DNA of 64,000 bases from Candidatus Uhrbacteria bacterium. Lineage in GTDB: Bacteria > Patescibacteriota > Patescibacteriia > UBA9934 > GWF2-40-263. Location of the stretch: assembly GCA_037131775.1 (NCBI GenBank), contig JBAXQK010000003.1, forward strand, positions 76,439 through 140,438. Reading direction: 5' to 3'. Shown here in pieces: positions 3,288-30,236 of this stretch. A program made the translations under genes and the position numbers. Under the pieces are notes generated by a model. The model saw only the letters and a program-made list of their open reading frames with translations, was not told the origin of the DNA and searched no databases. Position 1 is the stretch's first letter. Every line of letters begins with the position of its first letter.

Positions 3288-3698
3288 TCAGGGAGGGAGT
3301 TCGGCGAGTGCCCTGAGCGCGCGCTCGTCGTGGGGGCTCTTGGAAAGAACCTGTTTGAACGAGGAACGCGCCCCGTCCGCGTTTCCGAGCGCAAGCTGGC
3401 ACAGACCGACGTTGTACAGGGCCGGCAAGCTCTCGTCCCACTCGAACATCCGCTGGAACACCGCGATCGCCCCGTCGTAATCTCCGCGGAACTGACGCAC
3501 CTTGCCGAGACACATCTGCGCGTCCGCGTTGTGGCGGAGTGTCATGTCCTTCTCATTCAGACACTCGACGACGGAGGAAACCAGGTTGGAATCCACCTTC
3601 AGGAGCGGCTTTGCCCGGCGCCAGCGAGGCTCCGCGACCAGCTGCTCCCAGCAAAGAAACTCCGTCTTGTACCGTTCGGGATGCAAGCGCTTCTCCAT
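3288..3698 (-). CDS. TPR-repeat protein (short)
   Basis: The C-terminal part of ORF 3288..4115 is TPR-like (LGKVRQFRGDYDGAIAVFQRMFEWDESLPALYNVGLCQLALGNADGARSSFKQVL). Plausible start MEKRLHPERY at ATG 3696-3698; the upstream extension is Arg-rich junk. Confidence 0.5.
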   Translation of the reverse strand: MEKRLHPERYKTEFLCWEQLVAEPRWRRAKPLLKVDSNLVSSVVECLNEKDMTLRHNADAQMCLGKVRQFRGDYDGAIAVFQRMFEWDESLPALYNVGLCQLALGNADGARSSFKQVLSKSPHDERALRALAELPP

Positions 3699-4828: not shown

Positions 4829-6082
4829 TTACGAGACTTCCTCCTCAATCTCCATCAGCCGGTTGTACTTTGCCAGGCGCTCCGATCGCGACAGCGATCC
4901 CGCCTTGATGTACTCGGCGTTCACGGCGACGGCGAGGTCGGCGATGGTGGTGTCGGTCGTTTCTCCCGAGCGATGGGATACGGACACGGCGTATCCGCTC
5001 TGCTGGGCGAGCAGGATCGCGTCCATCGTCTCCGAGAGCGAGCCGATCTGGTTCACCTTGATGAGGATTGCGTTCGCGCACCCTTCCTCGATTCCCTGCC
5101 GCAGGCGCTCGGCGTTCGTCACGAAGAAGTCGTCGCCGACGAGCGCCATCTTGTCTCCGAGACGGTCGGTGAGCTTCTTCCATCCCTCCCAGTCGTCCTC
5201 GGCAAGGCCGTCCTCGAGCGAGACGATCGGATACTTCTTGGAAAGCCTGTCCCACATCGCGATCATCTGGTCGGACGTGAACGACGTGCCGTCGACCTTC
5301 AGGACGTAGCGCTTCGTCTTGGCGTCATAAAACTCGGACGTCGCCGGGTCCATCGCCAGCGTCACGTCCTTGCCCGGCACGTATCCCGCGTCCTTGATCG
5401 CCTGGACGATCGTTTTGAGCGCCTCCTCGTTCTTGGCCAGCTTGACCGCGAATCCGCCCTCGTCGCCGACGAGCGTCGAGAATCCCCTCTTCTTCAGGAG
5501 ACGGCCGAGCGCGTGGAACACCTCGGAGCCACAGCGGACGCGCTCTCGGAATTTCTTCTGCTGCGGAACGATCATGAACTCCTGGAAATCGAGAATCCAG
5601 CCCGCGTGCGCGCCGCCGTTCAGGATGTTCATCGTCGGGATCGGGAGACGGTAGGTCTTGTACTTCAGGTCGAATGCGCGGCGAAGGTACGCATACAGCG
5701 GCAGGCCGCTGGCATTGGCCGCGGCTCGGGCGCAGGCGAGCGAGACGCCGAGGATGGCGTTCGCGCCGAGTTTCGACTTGTTCGCCGTGCCGTCGAGAAA
5801 GATCATCCGCGAATCGAGCTCGCGCTGGGCAGACACGTCCATGCCGATGAGGACGGGCGCGATCTTCGCGTGCACGTTCTTCGCGGCCTTGAGCACGCCC
5901 TTCCCGCCGTATCGCTTCGCGTCGCCGTCGCGCAGCTCGAGTGCCTCGTGCGACCCCGTCGACGCGCCGCTCGGAACGGACGCGGATCCGGAAACGCCGT
6001 TGTCGAGAAGAACGGTCACCTCGAGCGTCGGGTTGCCGCGGGAATCAAGAATCTCGTGCGCGTGGATGGATTCGATTTTCAT
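4829..6082 (-). CDS. eno: enolase
   Basis: [54 protein letters not shown]... The long upstream extension in track ORF 4829..6505 is Arg/Ser-rich and rejected. ATG at 6080-6082. Confidence 0.93.
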
Positions 6083-6092
6083 AGTCGTGAGT

Positions 6093-7274
6093 TTACGATT
6101 CGAGCGCTTCGACTCCCGGCATCTTCTCCCCGGCGAGAAACTCCAGCATCGCTCCCCCGCCGGTCGAAAGGAGCGTGAACTGGTCCGCGACTCCGGCGGC
6201 TTCGACGGCGGGAATCGTGTCGCCTCCGCCGACGATCGTGACCGCCTTCTTGTTCGCGGCGATGGCGCGGGCGACGGCGGTCGTCCCCTTCGAAAACGCG
6301 TCCACCTCGCAGTAGCCGAGCGGGCCGTTCCACACGACCATCTTGGTTCCCTTGATTTCCTCGCAAAATCGTCGAATCGTGTCGGGCCCAAGGTCGACGA
6401 TCCGGTCGGTCTTGCGAACCGCGCCAATCGCGACCGTCCGGCAGGTCGCGTCCTTGCGAAGGCTCTGCGCGACCAGCATATCCGTCGGCAACCAGATCTT
6501 CTCACGGAATTTCTTCATCAGCTGCTCCGCGTCCTTCATGCCGTCCTTGTCCACCGCGGACTTGCCGATCTCGATCCCGTCCGCCACGAAGAACGCGTGG
6601 GCAAGCGCCCCGCCGACGAGCACACGGTCGGCCTCGGGGAGCAGGCGGCGCATCACCGGAATCTTGTCCGCCATCTTCAGCCCGCCCATGACCACCACGA
6701 ACGGGTGCCTCGGATGTGCCAAAACCTTCGCGAGCACCTCCACCTCGGACACAAGCTGCGGCCCCGCGTAGCCTGGAAGCTCGGAAGTGATGGCATCGAC
6801 GGAGGCGTGCGCGCGATGCGACACCGCGAACGCGTCGTTCATGTACAGGTCGCCGAGCTGGGCAAGCGCATGCGCGAGCGTCGTGGAGTTGCGCTCCTCG
6901 CCCGCGTCGAAGCGCACGTTCTCGAGCAGGACGACGTCTCCGTCCCTCATCGAGCGCACGAGCTTCTGCGCGAACGGACCGGCGATGTCGCGCGCGACCG
7001 GGACGTTGATCGACAGAAGCTCGGACAACCGTCGCGCGACCGGACGAACCGTATACGCGCTGATCTTCCGCCCGTTCGGCCGGCCAAGGTGCGTCATGAC
7101 CACGACCTTCGCCCCGCGCTGCCGCAGCCACTCGATATCCACAGCCGCCCTGGCAACCTTCCCATGCGGCCCGTCGACGACTTTCCCCTTTGCGACCGGC
7201 ACGTTGGCGTCAATTCTAAGCAACACCCGCTTCCCGGATAGATCCACACCACTGCGCAAAGTCCTCAAACGCAT
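6093..7274 (-). CDS. pgk: phosphoglycerate kinase
   Basis: 393 aa; [27 protein letters not shown]... Leaderless-type promoter immediately upstream. Confidence 0.93.
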
Positions 7275-8207: not shown

Positions 8208-9313
8208 GACCGTTCTCCTCCCACGTTCGGCACGAAGTCGAACATGGCTTGGTAGTACTGCAGTTTTGCCCTTGGATCTTGCGCGAGTCGCACGACCTCG
8301 GGGACACGTTCGTACAGGTGCTCGTCGGAGGGGTAACGGTGACGCTCCTGATCGGCGCCGTAGCAGTCGGGCATTCCGTACAGGCGATTGTACGTCAGGT
8401 TGTCGATGACCTGCCCTCCCATGACCGTGGGCGGGAGCGGAGCCCAGTCATGCTCGATGAAGAAGCTTTCCGCGCCCCAGCGGCGGTAGAAGCCGAGCTT
8501 CGCCATACGCGCCATCCAGGGAGGATCGCCGATCTGCCAGAACCCAACGCCGCACAGCAGGTGCTGCGAGTGGATGATCGGAAGTCGGCTACCGTCCAGG
8601 ACGTCGCGGCTGTAATGGCGGGCGATGTTTTCAAGGAACGCCCGCGCGATGTGCGCGCCACGATGGTCCGGGCCCACGACGAAGTTTGCGATTTGGTGGT
8701 ACCGGTTCGGCTTGAAGCTCTGGGGCGGCGGAAACGCGAAGCGGTCAAACCACTTGTGCGCGGGATCATCCTGATCCGGCCGGTCCCAGTCCACGTCTTC
8801 GACGATCGTCGACCAACGCAGGTTGTTGTACAGCCCGGTGAAGAAGAAGATCGTGTCCTTGCTTCTTCCCACGAGGATGGTCGCGATGATTTCGTGCGTG
8901 CGCTCATCGTGCCGGCGAGACAGGACGAAGCGGTGTCCGGCGACGCCCCAAAGCGTCGACACTCCCTCGGGGGAGATGATGTCCCGCTGCACGCGACGAA
9001 CCACGACGGTGGGCAGATGCCCACCGAGCTCACAGCGCGCCTGTTCGAGCGATCGCGTCAGCAGCGACGAGATCGCGCGCGCGATCATGGGATTCTCAGT
9101 CGACACGATGCCGAGCTCCATGCCGTCCGGAAGTGTCACGAAGTTCTGCGCGCCGGGGCTTCGGGTCTCCTCGTAGGTCAGGTACGCCGCATGCAGGCAA
9201 ACCGTTTCCACGAACCGATGAATCGGATCGAATACGTCTTCCGAGTGTGACATCTGACGGTCTCCCTTGGTTTCCCATTCCCCCCGAAACAAAATCGGGG
9301 AGGCCGTGAACAT
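8204..9313 (-). CDS. hypothetical protein, possible GNAT-like acyltransferase fold
   Basis: 369 aa, GC3-rich. The segment NFVVGPDHRGAHIARAFLENIARHY resembles GNAT motif A (R-G-x-G/A-I-A). Weak. Confidence 0.5.
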   Translation of the reverse strand: MFTASPILFRGEWETKGDRQMSHSEDVFDPIHRFVETVCLHAAYLTYEETRSPGAQNFVTLPDGMELGIVSTENPMIARAISSLLTRSLEQARCELGGHLPTVVVRRVQRDIISPEGVSTLWGVAGHRFVLSRRHDERTHEIIATILVGRSKDTIFFFTGLYNNLRWSTIVEDVDWDRPDQDDPAHKWFDRFAFPPPQSFKPNRYHQIANFVVGPDHRGAHIARAFLENIARHYSRDVLDGSRLPIIHSQHLLCGVGFWQIGDPPWMARMAKLGFYRRWGAESFFIEHDWAPLPPTVMGGQVIDNLTYNRLYGMPDCYGADQERHRYPSDEHLYERVPEVVRLAQDPRAKLQYYQAMFDFVPNVGGERS

Positions 9314-10643: not shown

Positions 10644-10773
10644 AGGGGAAAGAAACAAAATTCAAGAAGGGCAAGATGCAAAGAAGATTCAACGGCCAAG
10701 GGACAAAATTGAAATTTTACGTTTCAACTTTGATTCTTCCTTGTCTCTTGCCCTTCTTGCATTTGCCTCTTTC

Positions 10774-11781
10774 TCACAGTCCTCCGACGTGCTCCGCCAT
10801 CTCAACCAGCCGCACGGAGTACCCCCACTCGTTGTCGTACCACGCAAGGACCTTCACGAGGTCGCCGTCCACGACGCGCGTCATCTCGAGGTCGACGACC
10901 GACGAGAAGGTCGATCCGATGAAGTCGGACGAGACGAGCGGGACGTCGGACACGCCGAGGATTCCCTTGTAGCGCGGCGAGGCGGCAGCCTTCTTGAAGG
11001 CGTCGTTGATCTCCTCGACGGTCACCTTGCGCTTGAGCACGAAGGTAAAGTCGGACAGCGAGACGTCGAGCGTCGGAACGCGGATGGCGAGCCCGTCGAA
11101 CTTGCCCTTGAGCTCGGGGACGACCTCGGTCACGGCCTTCGCGGCCCCGGTCGACGTCGGCACGATGTTCACGAGCGCGGCGCGGGCGCGGCGCATGTCG
11201 GGGTGCATCTTCGGCGGCAGGCCGTCAACGATGTTCTGCTCGGCGGTCACGGAATGCACGGTCGTCATCATCGCCTTCTTCACGCCGAACAGCTCGTGCA
11301 TGATCTGCGCGACCGGAGCGATCGAGTTCGTGGTGCACGACGCGTTGTTCACGATCGCGTCCGAGCCCTTCGCGCTCTTGTGGTTCACGCCCATAAGAAA
11401 CGTCGGCACGTCCTTCGCCGGCGCCGAGATCACAACCTTCTTCGCGCCCGCGACAAGATGCGCGGACGCCTTCTCCTTGTCTGCGAACCGACCGGTCGAC
11501 TCGATGACGACGTCGACTTTGAATTGCTTCCACGGCAGCTTCGTCGGCTCCGTCTCCGCCACGATGGGGATGATCTGCCCGTCGACGATGAGGTTGTGCT
11601 CGTCAAACGAAACCTCGTGCGGCCAGGTGCGCATCACGGAATCATATTTCAAAAGGTGCGCGAGGATCTTCGGCTCGGTCAAGTCGTTGATCGCGACGAA
11701 CTTCGTCCCCTTCCGTCCGAATCCGATTTTGAACGCGTTGCGGCCGATTCGGCCAAAGCCGTTGATTGCGATGCGAAGCAT
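10774..11781 (-). CDS. gap: glyceraldehyde-3-phosphate dehydrogenase
   Basis: MLRIAINGFGRIGRNAFK...; SCTTNS active-site region; 335 aa. Confidence 0.93.
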   Translation of the reverse strand: MLRIAINGFGRIGRNAFKIGFGRKGTKFVAINDLTEPKILAHLLKYDSVMRTWPHEVSFDEHNLIVDGQIIPIVAETEPTKLPWKQFKVDVVIESTGRFADKEKASAHLVAGAKKVVISAPAKDVPTFLMGVNHKSAKGSDAIVNNASCTTNSIAPVAQIMHELFGVKKAMMTTVHSVTAEQNIVDGLPPKMHPDMRRARAALVNIVPTSTGAAKAVTEVVPELKGKFDGLAIRVPTLDVSLSDFTFVLKRKVTVEEINDAFKKAAASPRYKGILGVSDVPLVSSDFIGSTFSSVVDLEMTRVVDGDLVKVLAWYDNEWGYSVRLVEMAEHVGGL

Positions 11782-13822: not shown

Positions 13823-14944
13823 TTAGCGAATAAACATCGCGTCCCCGAACGAGAAGAACCGGTATCCGAGACGGACGGCTTCCTCGTAGGCCGCGACGAC
13901 GTTCTCCCTCCCCGCGAACGCGGAGACGAGGACGAGGAGGGTGGACTTTGGAAGGTGGAAGTTGGTGATGAGGGCGTCGATGACCTTGAACTCGAAGCCG
14001 GGGGTGATGAACAGGTTCACGTCGGCGGAGAAACCGTCGGCTGGCAAAACGTCCCTGTCATTGCGAGGTCCGCAGACCGAAGCAATCTCATCGAGGGATT
14101 GCTTCGTCGTTGAGACTCCTCGCAATGACGACGCGACGCCCTCGAGGACGCGGACGGTCGTCGTTCCAACCGCGACGATGCGACGACCTTCCCGCTTCGC
14201 CGCGTTGATGCGACCAGCCGTCTCCGCGTCGATCGACACGAACTCGGCGTGCATCACGTGTTCCTCGAGCGTCTCGGTCTTTACCGGGCGGAACGTGCCG
14301 ATCCCCACATGGAGCGTGACGAACTCGAACTGGACGCCCTTCGCCTTGAGCGTCGCGATCAGCGCGTCGGTGAAGTGGAACCCCGCGGTGGGCGCCGCGA
14401 CCGAGCCGACGGTCTTCGCGTACACGGTCTGATACTCGTCGAGCTTCGCTGGCGCCTTGTCCACGTACGGCGGAACCGGGATCTCGCCGTGCGCGTCCGC
14501 GAACGCGATGACCTCGTCGACCGTCGCGTTCATCTCGAGCGTCACGACCCCATCGTCCCTCTTCTCGACGACGACCGCGACCATCCCACGCAGATCGATC
14601 CAGTCCCCAAGGGCGACCTTCTTCCCAGGCCGCACCATCGCCGACCACCGCGTCCCTTCCCCGCGCAGCAGGAATACTTCGAGGCCGATCTTCTTTCCAG
14701 GGACGCTGACCGTCCCGCTCAATCGTGCCTTGAAAACTTTTGTGTTGTTCATCACCAGCACATCGCCCGCGACCAACTCGTCGACGATCTCCCAGAACAC
14801 CTTGTGCATACGCTCCCCCGACGCACGATCCAGCACCAACATTCGCGACGAATCGCGCGGGGAAACCGAAAACTGGGCGATTTGCTCGGGCGGGAGGTGG
14901 TAGTCGAACAGGGAGATGGGTGTGGGCACAAGGCGTAACGACAA
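13823..14944 (-). CDS. queA: S-adenosylmethionine:tRNA ribosyltransferase-isomerase
   Basis: Aligns with QueA from ...PISLFDYHLPPEQIAQ to ...RFFSFGDAMFIR. Track ORF 13823..15412 has a spurious N-terminal extension overlapping the divergent gene. Start uncertain: TTG 14944, GTG 14929 or ATG 14989. Confidence 0.8.
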   Translation of the reverse strand: MSLRLVPTPISLFDYHLPPEQIAQFSVSPRDSSRMLVLDRASGERMHKVFWEIVDELVAGDVLVMNNTKVFKARLSGTVSVPGKKIGLEVFLLRGEGTRWSAMVRPGKKVALGDWIDLRGMVAVVVEKRDDGVVTLEMNATVDEVIAFADAHGEIPVPPYVDKAPAKLDEYQTVYAKTVGSVAAPTAGFHFTDALIATLKAKGVQFEFVTLHVGIGTFRPVKTETLEEHVMHAEFVSIDAETAGRINAAKREGRRIVAVGTTTVRVLEGVASSLRGVSTTKQSLDEIASVCGPRNDRDVLPADGFSADVNLFITPGFEFKVIDALITNFHLPKSTLLVLVSAFAGRENVVAAYEEAVRLGYRFFSFGDAMFIR

Positions 14945-19383: not shown

Positions 19384-19425
19384 CGGAGAATAACCCGTTA
19401 CTTTGCCAGTCTCAGCAAAGATTTT

Positions 19426-19477
19426 AAAAAACCGCTCAACATACCTCGCAGCTGCGAGGTATGTTGAGCGGTTTTTT
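19426..19477. terminator. bidirectional terminator, perfect 20-bp palindrome flanked by A6/T6
   Basis: aaaaaa CCGCTCAACATACCTCGCAG|CTGCGAGGTATGTTGAGCGG tttttt. Confidence 0.85.
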
Positions 19478-19484
19478 ATTTCCA

Positions 19485-22213: not shown

Positions 22214-23320
22214 CTATCCATTCCCACGCTCCCGCATCGCCACGCTTTCGACGATTCCGAGCATGAGAAGCGTGAAGACGAGCGACGATCCGCCATAGCT
22301 GACAAGCGGCAGGGCCACGCCCGTAACCGGCAGAACCCCCAGGTTCATGCCCGCGTTGATAAAGAACTGCACGAACAGGACGGCGCCGATGCCAATGAGG
22401 AGAAATCCGGTGAAATCATCGTTCGTCTTCTTCGCGATGCGCCAGACGCGGAAGAATAGGACGAGGAACGCCCCAAGAAGAAGCGCGACGCCAAAAAAGC
22501 CGAGCTCCTCCGCGATCACGGAGAAGATGAAGTCCGTCTGGCTTTCTGGGAGGAACTTCAGCTGGCTCTGCGATCCGAACCCGAGTCCGCTTCCGAACCA
22601 ACCCCCGGCTCCGACCGCGATCATGGCCTGGGCCACGTTGTACCCCTGTCCGAGCGGATCGGCAGTCGGGTCGGCGAACGTAAGAATGCGGTCCTTCTGA
22701 TATGGCGCAAGCAGGAACTGCCAGGCGACCGCGCCGACGATCGCCGCGACGACCGCGAGCGCGACGAGCTGACGTCTCTTGATTCCCGCGAACAGAACGA
22801 GGATTCCCCACATGCCCATGAGCAGCACTGCCGAGCCAAGGTCCGGCTGAAGGAGGACGAGGCCTACAGGAACCGCGGTAAGCGCTCCGCTCTCGATGAG
22901 TTCCCGCCATCCGAACTCGAGGCGCGCGCGGCGGCTGAAGTACGCCGCCAGCGCGACGGCGAGGGCTAGCTTCATGAACTCGACCGGCTGGAAGCTGAAA
23001 CCCGCGACCGCGTACCAGCCCTTGGTTCCGTTGACGGTCGCGCCGAAAACGAGCACGCCGCCGAGCAGGGACAGGCCCGCGGCGTACAGCACGGTCGCGT
23101 AGTTACGCAGGAGATGATAGTTGGAACAGGCGATCAGCAAAAAGAGCGTCGCGCCGATAACGGCCGATGCTCCCTGCTTCTGGATGTTCAGGAAGTCCGT
23201 CGTCCCGTGCGAAAGCTCCACCGAATAGATGGCGGCCAGCCCGAACGAGACGAGCGTAAACGCCGCGAGGATGAGAATCCAGTCGGCGGAACGAAGTTGT
23301 CGAAAAAAATCGAGGCGCAT
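22214..23320 (-). CDS. ftsW: SEDS-family peptidoglycan glycosyltransferase (FtsW/RodA)
   Basis: 368 aa, about 10 TM; ...PLVSYGGSSL... family signature. Confidence 0.85.
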   Translation of the reverse strand: MRLDFFRQLRSADWILILAAFTLVSFGLAAIYSVELSHGTTDFLNIQKQGASAVIGATLFLLIACSNYHLLRNYATVLYAAGLSLLGGVLVFGATVNGTKGWYAVAGFSFQPVEFMKLALAVALAAYFSRRARLEFGWRELIESGALTAVPVGLVLLQPDLGSAVLLMGMWGILVLFAGIKRRQLVALAVVAAIVGAVAWQFLLAPYQKDRILTFADPTADPLGQGYNVAQAMIAVGAGGWFGSGLGFGSQSQLKFLPESQTDFIFSVIAEELGFFGVALLLGAFLVLFFRVWRIAKKTNDDFTGFLLIGIGAVLFVQFFINAGMNLGVLPVTGVALPLVSYGGSSLVFTLLMLGIVESVAMRERGNG

Positions 23321-23328
23321 GTGGAGGA

Positions 23329-23402
23329 TTGTAGGATAGTAGGAATGTAGCGCAGTAGGGGAAAAAACGCTACTTACCTACCGCCCTACCATCCTACCTC
23401 CT
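23329..23402. repeat. inverted array of tandem 8-nt repeats (GTAGGnnn x4 / nnnCCTAC x4)
   Basis: GTAGGATA GTAGGAAT GTAGCGCA GTAGGGGA aaaaacgctactta CCTACCGC CCTACCAT CCTACCTC. Lies between the stop of 23394..24317 and the ftsW start. Confidence 0.8.
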
Positions 23403-24317
23403 CAGCTGAACCCGCGTTCGCGTGTCCTCGGTCGTTTCCCCGGCCAGCGCCTTGTACGACGCCATGTCAAACGGATTGACCTCCGTGATCACCTGCACCT
23501 TGTTCGCACTCGGGATCGGCCCGAACCAGTTGACGGTCACGTCCTGCGACTCCCCGGCGTCGATCGAGGAGAGCGTCGTCCCGGTCACCCCGACGATGGT
23601 CGGCCCGCGCATGAGCAGGATGGTGAGCGTCGGGTCGTAGTAACCGTAGGCAGTCGCGTTCCGAACCGTAAACGAGATCCGACCCACCGGCTTCTTGTCG
23701 ATCTCAATCGACGCGAACGCGGCGTTCGTTACCTCGAACCCCACGCGGTTCGCGATCCAGTCCGAAGGCTCGCCGGTCTCATGATGGTCGATGTGATGCC
23801 ACGCGACGTTTGAGAGCGCCAACGACAAGCTGCGCGGCGGCGTCGCGGACGCAACCGCGTACGCGGCCAGCGACTTGTCCGAGTTCGGCAGTACGTACCC
23901 CTTCGCCTCCGCGGTCGCCCCGGCGGTCGACTCAAAGACATACGTGTACTCCGCCCACCAGTCCCGGTTCGGATTCGTAATCGTCGCATACAGATCGTAC
24001 TTCCCTTCCGAGGAGATCGTCGCGATCGGCGTGACGGCCTTCAGATTCTTCGCCGCCCGTGCCGTCGCGTACCCATGCAGGTCGCTCTGGCCGTAAGAAG
24101 CCATCTCAAGCACGGATCGCGTCTCGTCTGCGTATCGCACAAGGTACGCGTCTACGAACGCCCATCCCGCAAACGCAACGAACAGCGCGTCCACCAAGAC
24201 GAACGCGACAATCCCCGCCCGCCGCAACCCGTCGCGGTGCTCGATCCACCATTTCGACTTCTTATACTGCTTCTGATAATCCTTCTCCGCCTCCAGAAGA
24301 ACGTTCTCTGTCTCCAT
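23394..24317 (-). CDS. membrane-anchored hypothetical protein
   Basis: METENVLLEAEKDYQKQYKKSKWWIEHRDGLRRAGIVAFVLVDALFVAFAGWAF... ATG 24315-24317. Confidence 0.55.
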   Translation of the reverse strand: METENVLLEAEKDYQKQYKKSKWWIEHRDGLRRAGIVAFVLVDALFVAFAGWAFVDAYLVRYADETRSVLEMASYGQSDLHGYATARAAKNLKAVTPIATISSEGKYDLYATITNPNRDWWAEYTYVFESTAGATAEAKGYVLPNSDKSLAAYAVASATPPRSLSLALSNVAWHHIDHHETGEPSDWIANRVGFEVTNAAFASIEIDKKPVGRISFTVRNATAYGYYDPTLTILLMRGPTIVGVTGTTLSSIDAGESQDVTVNWFGPIPSANKVQVITEVNPFDMASYKALAGETTEDTRTRVQLRR

Positions 24318-24460
24318 ACGAGGGACAGTATACCAGATCCCATTGACGAACGCCCGATTTTCTGCTTGAATGCCAGCTCCGAGCCATCCCGGCACGGAGA
24401 TCAGGCAACTGCCGCCAGCGGGGTAGAACCCAAGGCGGCTCCCGTAGAACGGAGTACGAG

Positions 24461-25423
24461 ATGGAAAGACGGCTCTTCGACAAGCCCATGAGCGAGCTAC
24501 GCGAGGCATTCGTCCGCGCGCGGTTCGCGGAACCCAAGATGTTCGGCAGCCCTGACGTCGAGTCGACGTCTATCTGGGTCAACGCCCCGGCCTTCCACGC
24601 ATGGCTCAAGGCGAACTGGAACGGCAACGATGTTGTTGATGGATACGCGGCGGTTCTCGAACGCGTGGCGACGCGTGCATCCCGAGACGAAGTTCTCCGC
24701 TCGCTTCCAGATATGAAGTGCCTCGAAACGGCTCGCACCCTTCTCGGCAGCCTGGACGCCGACACGTCGCTCTATCACAGTCCTTTCTCGAAAACGGTCG
24801 TTCTCGTTCGCGACCATACCGTCCTCACGCTGTCACCAAATACACCGGAAGAGATCGACATCAGCGTCCGTCCTGCCAGCGTCTTCGACGTTTGTTGGGT
24901 CGTATCCACTGAGAGGTTACACGGCAGACCGAAAGCTGAAGCCGCGCTCGCCTGGCTCAGGCAGCAGTATGCTGCCGCGATCCTGTCCGTCCGCGAGTCC
25001 GCCGAGCGCGACTTCGACGAGGCGGTCGCGGTCAGCGCCTACGGGACGAAGATCGTGAAGGCGAAGTGGGTGATCGCCGTACACGTCGAGCGCAACGGCG
25101 TGGCGTGGCTCTTCCCCGCTTCCGCGTTCCGCGAGAACAAGGTTCGGCTCCGCCAAGACGTCGAATTCGATCGACAGAACGTTCGGCAGCTCAACCACTT
25201 CGACCCCAAGCAGTTCCAGGCGTACATGACGAAAGACCCAACCAAGTCGTTCCTCGAGGACGCTCGACACACGCTCCTTCGCGCCATGTTCGAAAGGAAA
25301 TCGTACGCGCAGCGCCTGATCACGATCGATGACCGCGTCATCAAGGACTTTGGAAGCGTCCTCGTCGCGAACGTCACTGACTGCCCCTCCCCGCTCCCCT
25401 CCGGCAGCCGTATTCCCAGCTGA
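24461..25423 (+). CDS. hypothetical protein (320 aa)
   Basis: GC3-rich. Followed by a clean terminator. Confidence 0.55.
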   Translation: MERRLFDKPMSELREAFVRARFAEPKMFGSPDVESTSIWVNAPAFHAWLKANWNGNDVVDGYAAVLERVATRASRDEVLRSLPDMKCLETARTLLGSLDADTSLYHSPFSKTVVLVRDHTVLTLSPNTPEEIDISVRPASVFDVCWVVSTERLHGRPKAEAALAWLRQQYAAAILSVRESAERDFDEAVAVSAYGTKIVKAKWVIAVHVERNGVAWLFPASAFRENKVRLRQDVEFDRQNVRQLNHFDPKQFQAYMTKDPTKSFLEDARHTLLRAMFERKSYAQRLITIDDRVIKDFGSVLVANVTDCPSPLPSGSRIPS

Positions 25424-29145: not shown

Positions 29146-29234
29146 GTCACAGATTACGGATTATACGGATGTACGGATTAGATACTTGGCCGAGTGTCTG
29201 ATCCGTACATCCTTACCCATCCGTAATCCGTGAC
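29146..29234. repeat. long imperfect hairpin from tandem heptads (TACGGAT x3 / ATCCGTA x3)
   Basis: gtcacagatTACGGATtaTACGGATgTACGGATtagatacttggccgagtgtctgATCCGTAcATCCtTAcccATCCGTAATCCGTgac. Immediately after the nusG stop. Confidence 0.8.
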
Positions 29235-29733: not shown

Positions 29734-29750
29734 ATTTAGGCAGAAGGCTG

Positions 29751-29819
29751 AAAGGCATTAGGCTTAAGGGTTTACAGCCCGGCGGACTTACGCCTTAAGC
29801 CTTAAGCCTTAAGCCTGAA
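29751..29819. repeat. hairpin from tandem heptads (GCCTTAA x3.5 with inverse AGGCTTAAGG arm)
   Basis: aAGGCTgaaAGGCattAGGCTTAAGGgtttacagcccggcggacttacGCCTTAAGCCTTAAGCCTTAAGCCTgaa. Between the rplK stop and the small membrane ORF. Confidence 0.8.
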
Positions 29820-30188: not shown

Positions 30189-30236
30189 TACTAACCTGAT
30201 CGTGGAAGGCGAGAGCCGTTACACCACGCAAATCAT

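Follow-up and report, generated by a model that had tools for sequence, protein, structure and literature searches.

The junction between rodA and the open reading frame (ORF) upstream of it in an uncultured Candidatus Uhrbacteria bacterium is occupied by a long imperfect hairpin, the GTAGG hairpin, whose two arms are tandem arrays of 8-nt units. It lies in a 64,000-nt stretch of contig JBAXQK010000003.1 (positions 76,439 to 140,438), which is called the window below and is numbered from its first letter; loci from other assemblies are given by L numbers. The hairpin is a lineage-specific insertion that is absent from most close relatives. We incline, with some reserve, to the view that this non-essential element of about 73 nt was inserted into a tight stop-start junction (stop codon, 1-3 nt, ATG) of a two-gene operon, was generated locally, folds on itself and acts, if at all, in the messenger RNA (mRNA).

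Structure of the GTAGG hairpin

An earlier note on this DNA had described four GTAGGnnn octads followed by four nnnCCTAC octads in an inverted array of period 8, and this was borne out by direct reading, pattern matching, Tandem Repeats Finder (TRF) and folding; the tandem-unit hairpin is confirmed as real. The plus strand from 23331 to 23397 consists of GTAGGATA GTAGGAAT GTAGCGCA GTAGGGGA, aaaaaac, and GCTACTTA CCTACCGC CCTACCAT CCTAC. The GTAG(G/C) cores are GTAGG at 23331-23335 and 23339-23343, GTAGC at 23347-23351 and GTAGG at 23355-23359, and the (G/C)CTAC cores are GCTAC at 23369-23373 and CCTAC at 23377-23381, 23385-23389 and 23393-23397, all of them in both arms spaced at exactly 8 nt. 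Each side carries a degenerate fifth unit (GGAGG at 23323-23327, CCTCC at 23397-23401). The 5-nt cores were almost invariant (38 of 40 positions) and the 3-nt spacers varied; only two units deviate, GTAGC and GCTAC, and these complement one another. Between the arms, complementarity is found at the cores and is mostly lacking in the spacers of paired units. TRF found a period of 8 in both arms with 83-85% matches, the units having only the 5-nt core in common.

The full 4+4 pattern was matched once in the window and not at all in 100 dinucleotide shuffles. With at most one mismatch allowed, GTAGGNNNGTAGG gave seven matches (0.94 expected), every one of them at the rodA junction locus. In the RNA minimum-free-energy fold about 29 base pairs were formed, and the fold of the minus (sense) strand reached -47.4 kcal/mol (z -4.5 against shuffles), that of the plus strand -42.1 kcal/mol (z -4.4) and that of the DNA -15.8 (z -3.5). 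Both flanking genes lie on the minus strand, and the CCTAC side is transcribed first, as GGUAGG units. In the transcript the order is therefore GGAGG, UAG, (GGUAGGNN)x4, a U6 loop, (NNNCCUAC)x4, CCUCC, AC and AUG, and the hairpin takes up the full 73 nt that separate the upstream ORF's stop codon from the rodA ATG. The features of the junction are as follows.

23324-23403, minus strand: whole imperfect hairpin (80 bases), filling the intercistronic spacer and extending into the last three codons of the upstream ORF
23369-23397, minus strand: 5' arm in the transcript, four units GGUAGG-AU, GGUAGG-GC, GGUAGG-UA and AGUAGC-G
23360-23368, minus strand: apical loop, GGAAAAAAC on the plus strand and GUUUUUUCC in the transcript (U6 loop)
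23331-23359, minus strand: 3' arm in the transcript, four CCUAC/GCUAC units
23397-23402, minus strand: two AGG Arg codons (GGAGG pseudo-unit) ending the upstream ORF, paired with the CCUCC at 23323-23327
23394-23396, minus strand: stop codon UAG of the upstream ORF (CTA on the plus strand), within the first unit of the 5' arm
23323-23327, minus strand: CCUCC pseudo-unit at the stem's 3' base, 2 nt before the rodA AUG
23318-23320, minus strand: rodA start codon
22214-23320, minus strand: rodA, SEDS family (PF01098), RodA in the annotation of relatives
23394-24317, minus strand: upstream ORF with one predicted membrane segment, 307 aa by the gene callers in relatives

The gene that the earlier note had named ftsW does belong to the SEDS (RodA/FtsW) family PF01098 and is annotated as RodA in relatives. 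One detail of the note was corrected by this context: the stop codon that it had placed in the last unit does lie inside the outermost CCTAC unit, which is the first unit in the transcript of these minus-strand genes.

Distribution of the hairpin among relatives

The orthologous rodA junction was retrieved from 20 other assemblies, and the alleles were as follows, with the identity of RodA to that of the window in brackets.

No hairpin, ...CGTCGG TAA/TAG, 1-3 nt, ATG: L004 (98-99%), L316 (94%), L317 (92%), and, at lower identity, L006, L319, L323, L324, L325, L314, L315, L007 and L008
Identical hairpin: L312 and L313, same strain at 99.96-99.98% nucleotide identity (100%)
GTAGG hairpin with 12 differences: L005 (92%)
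Different hairpin of 93 nt: L002 and L318 (91-93%)
Third, AT-rich hairpin with ATGTAG-like units of about 8 nt: L003 (88%)

In 12 relatives the hairpin-free junction reads ...CGTCGGTAA(N1-3)ATG, the native tight junction being TAAGCATG, and a junction of 72-93 nt was found only in the window strain, L005, L002/L318 and L003. All hairpin-bearing alleles carry (A/C)GGAGG before the stop codon, and all empty alleles carry CGTCGG there. An assembly artefact was ruled out, since two further assemblies of the window strain and the diverged lineage L005 also contain the element. Because it is absent from most close relatives, a near-identical strain among them, the hairpin is dispensable. The earlier suggestion of a structural or mobile origin held in its first part: given its absence from 12 relatives, the element is better explained as structural or insertional in origin than as a classical operator. 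Mobility of the transposon type found no support, as neither the 64-kb window nor 1.34 Mb of Uhrbacteria loci contained a second period-8 GTAG array.

Comparison of the window with L004 showed 96-100% identity in the flanks and 75% over the 40 nt that end the upstream ORF; over these 40 nt the window is 95% identical to L002 and 88% identical to L005. The lineages that share the hairpin are not sisters. Since identity to L004 drops there and rises with L002 and L005, the hairpin allele lies in a short patch of its own ancestry, and these identities would be most simply explained if the allele had spread between strains as a short patch of homologous recombination. A strong structure at the translational junction of a core cell-wall gene, present in one strain and absent from its near-twin, offers a natural experiment on coupling, with a modest consequence for the single locus.

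Pairing registers and unit number

The earlier note had proposed that the periodic arms can pair in several registers as a slippery hairpin, and constrained folds, in which each GUAG core was forced to pair with each CUAC core, upheld the proposal. In the window the in-register fold reached -40.7 kcal/mol, a shift by one unit gave -38.0 kcal/mol one way and -36.8 to -38.6 kcal/mol the other way, and the three registers thus lay within about 4 kcal/mol. The 12 differences of L005 break five pairs of the window fold and destroy two cores of the 3' arm. All four GUAG cores of its 5' arm are kept, the changes in that arm falling in the spacers, and the L005 sequence still folds at -38.7 kcal/mol (z -4.8), its 5' arm having moved by one 8-nt unit, so that the second unit pairs with the last CCUAC and the first with AUCCU of the CCUCC flank. 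The use of more than one register is real, because L005 folds about equally well one unit out of register; the periodic arms let the stem survive mutation by register slipping. A stem of this kind offers a concrete, testable answer to the question of how long stems of RNA or DNA come into being and last.

The number of units was constant at 4+4 in the window, L312, L313 and L005 (the three same-strain records being the window, ERZ27300037 and SRR7053541). The expected variation of unit number between strains was thus not seen in three same-strain assemblies and L005, and phase variation of rodA by slipped-strand mispairing was not supported either, given the constant number, the imperfect repeats and a position at an operon junction and not in a promoter or reading frame.

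Gene context of the rodA junction

The best protein matches place the organism, whose GC content is about 62%, in Candidatus Uhrbacteria, a part of the Patescibacteria. The neighbourhood comprises rodA, the upstream membrane ORF, gyrB and L25. A Pfam scan of six neighbouring ORFs gave no match for the 307-aa upstream ORF. This ORF ends AGG AGG TAG, with AGG a rare codon that accounts for 8.8% of the Arg codons in the window. A Shine-Dalgarno (SD)-like core of 4 nt within -22 to -4 was present at only 15 of 53 predicted starts, the start predictions being rough ones from the longest ORFs, which suggests weak reliance on SD sequences and heavy translational coupling in this genome. In addition, an SD core is missing at many of the window's tight junctions (stop, 1-3 nt, ATG). 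A hairpin-bridged SD, in which the GGAGG at the 5' base would be brought to the AUG, was considered and not adopted: the GGAGG is itself paired with CCUCC, the geometry in L002 leads to a gap of about 23 nt, and SD-like cores are scarce at the window starts as just described.

The segment adjoining the rodA operon is variable between strains. Between the upstream-ORF region and gyrB, window 24335-25379 and L004 6640-9057 differ in about 1.4 kb of content, and the window side carries a 320-aa ORF (24461-25423) with no Pfam match.

Tandem-unit hairpins at other operon junctions

The GTAGG hairpin is one of several hairpins of this architecture in the window, of which the other four are the following.

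29146-29234, plus strand: second member, ACGGAT/ATCCGT units, with its start 3 nt past the nusG stop; not found in L004, L006 or L007
29745-29816, plus strand: third member, AGGC-type units that pair with (GCCTTAA)x4, located between rplK and an ORF of 122 aa; not found in L004, L006 or L007
40177-40245, plus strand: fourth member, period-14 units (ACCACTCACTACAA x2), ending 4 nt before the next ATG
10648-10773, minus strand: fifth, weaker member, CAAGA-type units with a period of about 7, filling the spacer after the GAPDH gene

The inverted-array scan called for by the earlier note was run on the window and its relatives with thresholds of at least 24 for the local self-complement score, at least 18 nt for the arms and at least 5 for the joint arm-periodicity z, expected counts being taken from arm shuffling. 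It revealed periodic hairpins at other loci too, above expectation.

Window, 64 kb: 3 periodic hairpins (0.2 expected)
Close relatives, 125 kb: 4 (0 expected)
Other Uhrbacteria, 874 kb: 4-5 (1.75 expected)
Other loci of the Candidate Phyla Radiation (CPR) and related loci, 108 kb: 1, in L070
E. coli K-12 including ribosomal-protein operons, 100 kb: 0

Many scanner matches in Frankia loci fell in GC-rich coding repeats with a similarly high null expectation, making them an uninformative control. Uhrbacteria loci yielded about 15 similar hairpins (about 10 of them in relatives), each built from a unit sequence of its own. The earlier assignment of the GTAGG hairpin as third member of a tandem-unit hairpin family therefore stands insofar as the class exists (four others in the window, about 10 in relatives), and the word family applies to architecture only. 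The positions of members at gene junctions, the first three rows by tblastn mapping, were these.

secE-nusG: L038
nusG-rplK: L009, L024, window 29146
rplK-(X)-rplA: L021, L035, L070, L004, window 29745
rpsB-tsf: L006, L324
After gap: window 10648

Three or four junctions of the secE-nusG-rplK-rplA cluster thus account for about 9 of 16 class members, and single junctions bear unrelated hairpins across lineages, with three types at rodA, three at nusG-rplK and five at rplK-rplA. The hairpins begin 0-20 nt past stop codons and usually finish 0-18 nt before the next start. The purine-rich arm came first in 12 of 12 periodic hairpins, compared with 58% of non-periodic ones, a polarity that by symmetry holds on both strands. 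Watson-Crick pairing dominates in the class, and the sense-strand RNA fold was better than the antisense fold in 9 of 16; in the absence of a consistent bias, selection specific to the RNA strand, with G-U pairs favouring the sense strand, was rejected. Perfect duplications were present on one arm only in the 29745 hairpin ((GCCTTAA)x4) and the 40177 hairpin (14-mer x2). Slippage acts on single arms once a hairpin exists, as these perfect, recent duplications have no counterpart in the partner arm. For the L004 hairpin, neither a seed nor an intermediate was present in the orthologous spacers.

Two further observations touch this cluster and its units. L038 contains two hairpins (6376-6474 and 11659-11746) with an AAGGC-type 9-nt unit, to which the AGGC unit at window 29745-29816 is similar; some units may be common within or between genomes, which bears on mobile versus in-situ origin. 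A small conserved stem-loop, CGTGG(G/A)AGGCGA(A/G)AGCCG..CCAC, immediately precedes the rplA start in the window (30201-30228), L004, L006, L007 and L009, that is, in all relatives examined; it had no Rfam match at the gathering threshold and resembles an L1-binding (autoregulatory) mimic of the L1 stalk of 23S rRNA.

These hairpins form an architectural class with fast turnover and private units in Uhrbacteria. A wider proposal, which we offer tentatively and regard as doubtful in its full extent, is that they belong to a previously undescribed class of intercistronic hairpins, in Uhrbacteria and apparently in some high-GC phage or gene transfer agent (GTA)-like clusters. Its members would have purine-first arms of private 7-14-nt tandem units, would be gained and lost faster than genes diverge by 5-10%, would sit at junctions of highly expressed operons (secE-nusG-rplK-rplA, rpsB-tsf, gap) and would tolerate mutation through register slipping. 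They would be made by slippage and fold-back copying, possibly favoured by reduced DNA repair, and would serve as evolvable mRNA modules for insulation or processing or for stop-start bridging. The pattern suggests that ultra-compact CPR genomes, almost without intergenic DNA, repeatedly build long stems from short tandem units. For annotators it calls for caution, since a family defined by architecture only will have members that sequence or covariance searches miss.

Dispersed repeats and inverted arrays in other genomes

In L002 and L318 the 93-nt hairpin found at the rodA junction belongs to a dispersed palindromic repeat, and the break in the L318 contig falls within this copy. This repeat has the form GTCATTGCGAG...GAAGCAATC...CTCGCAATGAC, or more fully TGTCATTGCGAG...GAAGCAATC...GATTGCTTC...CTCGCAATGACA, and spans about 75-130 nt. 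It was found in the window and in at least nine other loci, and the window copy is an insertion relative to L006. Copies lie at window 14050-14135, L002 352-422, L024 14452-14582, L029 4298-4373, L046 12952-13054 and L052 415-487, and single arms in L010, L011, L016, L021, L039 and L043. The repeat looks like a mobile element of the Uhrbacteria lineage akin to miniature inverted-repeat transposable elements (MITEs) or repetitive extragenic palindromic (REP) sequences, and we know of no published name for it. It shares with the GTAGG element the same stop-start junction (in L002 and L318), a similar length (about 90 nt for the repeat) and the ability to form a hairpin, and differs from it in being a multi-copy sequence family with non-periodic arms. 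Elsewhere in the window, a perfect palindrome of 54 nt (19425-19478), in which a 27-nt half with an A6 run is mirrored by a T6 run, lies between convergent genes and has the shape of a putative bidirectional intrinsic terminator.

Metagenomes and viral contigs were scanned for the 4-unit GTAGG pattern. Among the matches listed, most were simple tandem arrays, inverted partners were present only in L164, L127 and L187, and no further allele of the rodA-junction locus appeared. On the high-GC metagenomic contig L164 (4490-4575), (ACGGTAGG)x5, a loop and CCTAC x3 exactly fill the spacer between two co-directional ORFs, which are topA-like and trmFO-like as judged from their translations only, and both architecture and core match the window element. 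In viral or GTA-like head-module contigs of 68-69% GC (L245 and L272), inverted (GGCAGTA)n or (GGGCAGTA)n / (TACTGCC)n arrays surround loops of 60-90 nt.

L245: inverted arrays at 1984-2141, 3393-3495, 5796-5936 and 9164-9305
L272: inverted arrays at 2469-2591 and 6569-6760
Also present in: L127, L187, L225, L230, L235, L238, L260, L270 and L282

These arrays recur between genes for head morphogenesis or structure, as immediately behind the gene for the major capsid protein, with one unit used several times per contig, and 45 of the viral matches were purine-first and 8 pyrimidine-first. The array contigs had no annotated phage match, and a literature search on the unit sequences returned primer matches only.

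Origin and possible action of the insertion

The local origin to which we incline may be pictured as follows. Replication slippage would have tandemly duplicated an 8-mer overlapping the context of the stop codon (GGAGGTAG giving a GGTAGGNN unit), and the units would then have been copied in inverted orientation by intrastrand template switching and not by transposition. The predominance of Watson-Crick pairs and the lack of a consistent strand difference in folding point to a symmetry set at the DNA level, and the duplications confined to single arms of the sister hairpins point to slippage. Transcript and single-stranded DNA could thereafter fold as a long imperfect stem-loop. Such a fold would hold the upstream stop codon, in the 5' base of the stem, close in space to the rodA AUG, which follows the 3' base at a distance of 3 nt; by melting the lower part of the stem, a ribosome that terminates there would also lay open the rodA start region. 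Self-folding insertions may be tolerated at coupled junctions, we propose, and this one may even be useful, because the fold preserves the ancestral proximity of stop and start. If the element has a function at the RNA level, it might block 3' exonucleases, serve as an RNase III-type processing site or as an attenuator, or modulate translational coupling. The first three roles are as possible as stop-start bridging, and are favoured by the enrichment of the class after highly expressed genes.

Several findings weigh against this account. No intermediate allele with fewer units was found in the orthologous junctions, which leaves stepwise growth in situ unobserved, and no donor sequence for the inverted copy was found. 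Recurrent, unrelated hairpins at one junction across lineages and the 12 of 12 purine-first polarity are both hard to obtain by neutral mutation in situ. Conservation is far higher in the GTAG(G) cores than in the 3-nt spacers, and L005 keeps all four cores of the 5' arm and loses two of the 3' arm, a pattern that could indicate a sequence-specific binder instead. The hairpin at the rodA site in L002 and L318 is a dispersed-repeat copy, and for the window genome the search for GTAGG copies covered 64 kb, so that a mobile origin of the GTAGG version is conceivable.

Some of these points lead to other explanations. The stem-loop could be a selected regulatory RNA that sets the cistron ratio by attenuation or partial termination, by RNase III processing or by an unmasking of the rodA start that depends on the ribosome, the tandem units being the easiest mutational route to a long, mutation-tolerant stem. 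The genes of the secE-nusG-rplK-rplA cluster, rpsB and gap are classically highly expressed, and the cistron ratios of some of these operons are differentially regulated in model bacteria. Stability kept across 12 substitutions by register shift would agree with such selection, as would the recurrence of unrelated hairpins at the same junctions, their concentration in this cluster and after rpsB and gap, their close fit between stops and starts, and their polarity. The absence from most close relatives, including a near-identical strain, the want of a folding advantage of the sense strand and the lack of an adjacent T-tract speak against it, and we hold this explanation to be possible but questionable. 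A binding array read at 8-nt intervals by an oligomeric RNA- or DNA-binding protein with a preference for (G)UAGG, whose binding to the 5' arm would open the hairpin, is suggested by analogy with TRAP and HutP, which read (G/U)AG or UAG repeats. The near-invariant cores with variable spacers, the complementary deviants GTAGC and GCTAC, and the preservation of the four 5'-arm GUAG cores in L005 would suit it. The unrelated units of the sister hairpins would each demand a protein of their own, the element is missing from close relatives, a candidate binder is not known (no search aimed at one was made), a period of 8 nt turns successive DNA sites by about 275 degrees, and the conservation of the cores is weak evidence from two diverged copies only, all of which make such an array very improbable.

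A degenerate miniature mobile element of the REP/REPIN (REP doublet forming a hairpin) or MITE kind would account for the repeated GTAG motifs and the presence/absence polymorphism, and mobile arrays have parallels in the dispersed palindromic copy at the same junction in L002 and L318 and in the viral (GGCAGTA)n arrays that recur with one unit several times per contig. The lack of a second period-8 GTAG array in the sequence searched, the absence of a visible target-site duplication and the different units of all sister hairpins count against it, as does the GTAG itself, which is paired and reiterated in the stem, unlike in the REP definition (PMC3733652); this origin seems unlikely. Finally, tandem units, several pairing registers and a position immediately upstream of the rodA start would befit a contingency locus in which slipped-strand mispairing alters the unit number and makes rodA phase-variable. 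The unit number is the same in the window, ERZ27300037, SRR7053541 and the diverged L005, repeats as imperfect as these (83-85% by TRF) strongly lower slippage, and rodA is a core cell-wall gene and not a typical surface contingency gene, so that we give this possibility hardly any credence. The insertion generated locally at the stop-start junction thus remains the account that we prefer.

Comparison with known systems

The GTAGG hairpin was compared with known types of element. The consensus of an intrinsic terminator (a GC stem of 5-20 bp with a T-tract within 0-2 nt) was not present on either strand in 22900-23900, and the nearest T7 run, 16 nt past the stem and inside rodA, is present too in relatives without the hairpin. 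The hairpin is different in kind from terminators because canonical ones (GC stem and T-tract) occur elsewhere in the window and none occurs here; an intrinsic terminator or promoter was rejected, as no consensus for either was found on either strand of the hairpin region. A known RNA family was rejected too, since Rfam gave no match at the gathering threshold in the whole window; at the hairpin locus there were only generic matches to microRNA-precursor models (15-26 bits against gathering scores of 59-97), of the sort given by any long hairpin. The window contained no tRNA or tmRNA. Integron attC sites are sequence-variable hairpins after stop codons; by eye, the RYYYAAC/GTTRRRY cores were missing here, the flanking genes are housekeeping genes, and attC was set aside.

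Tandem interspaced guide RNA (TIGR) arrays of CPR bacteria and phages have 36-nt units with box C/D-like motifs, two spacers and an adjacent Tas (Nop-domain) gene (PMC12045711). Like the present element they include short-period, weakly conserved repeat arrays in Patescibacteria, some with palindromic stems (PMC12045711). The GTAGG element differs in its period of 8, its 4+4 units and its place inside a housekeeping operon, where the neighbours are rodA, the membrane ORF, gyrB and L25 and not Tas, and it was not taken for a TIGR array.

REPs are palindromes of 20-40 bp with conserved sequence, high copy number and one unpaired GTAG tag, and are mobilised by RAYT (REP-associated tyrosine) transposases (PMC3733652, PMC3116915). 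REPs and REPINs resemble the GTAGG element in being small extragenic palindromes that follow closely on stop codons, with co-directional genes on both sides, and that contain GTAG; they are probably transcribed and are believed to work as RNA hairpins that stabilise mRNA or affect translation of the upstream gene (PMC3733652, PMC3116915). The GTAGG element is about 80 nt long and single-copy in the sequence searched (the window and 1.34 Mb of Uhrbacteria loci), where the period-8 GTAG array occurs only at the rodA locus; its GTAG occurs four times per arm, paired in the stem, and not as a single unpaired tag beside a GC-rich stem, and its sister elements have no common sequence. A single copy in the same sequence also separates it from MITEs, as does the lack of a visible target-site duplication at the insertion boundaries when these are aligned with empty sites.

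Contingency loci of simple sequence repeats (SSRs) resemble the element in having short tandem units near a start codon. They are perfect repeats of variable copy number in promoters or reading frames, and none of this is true of the GTAGG element, whose unit number is constant in the window, L312, L313 and L005 and whose repeats match at 83-85%. Hairpins for intercistronic processing or stabilisation include the RNase III sites of phage T7, the malE-malF REP and the E. coli rpsB-tsf and rplL-rpoB attenuators. These too are long imperfect stem-loops between cistrons of one operon, and members of the present class lie in orthologous operons (rpsB-tsf and the L11 cluster). The GTAGG element differs from them in having periodic arms, no adjacent U-tract and no conservation among close relatives.

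The remaining comparison is with quasipalindromes made by template switching, a process that can create a whole stem in one event (PMC8794818). Like the GTAGG element, these are imperfect inverted repeats; one arm is a copy of the other made at the DNA level, as may be the case in the GTAGG element too, and such events can also homogenise the arms (PMC8794818, PMC7202029). Known quasipalindromes are short stems without internal periodicity (PMC8794818, PMC7202029), whereas the GTAGG arms are tandem arrays that have since slipped independently. On these comparisons the GTAGG element appears akin to the extragenic palindromic insertions and quasipalindromes that are already known.

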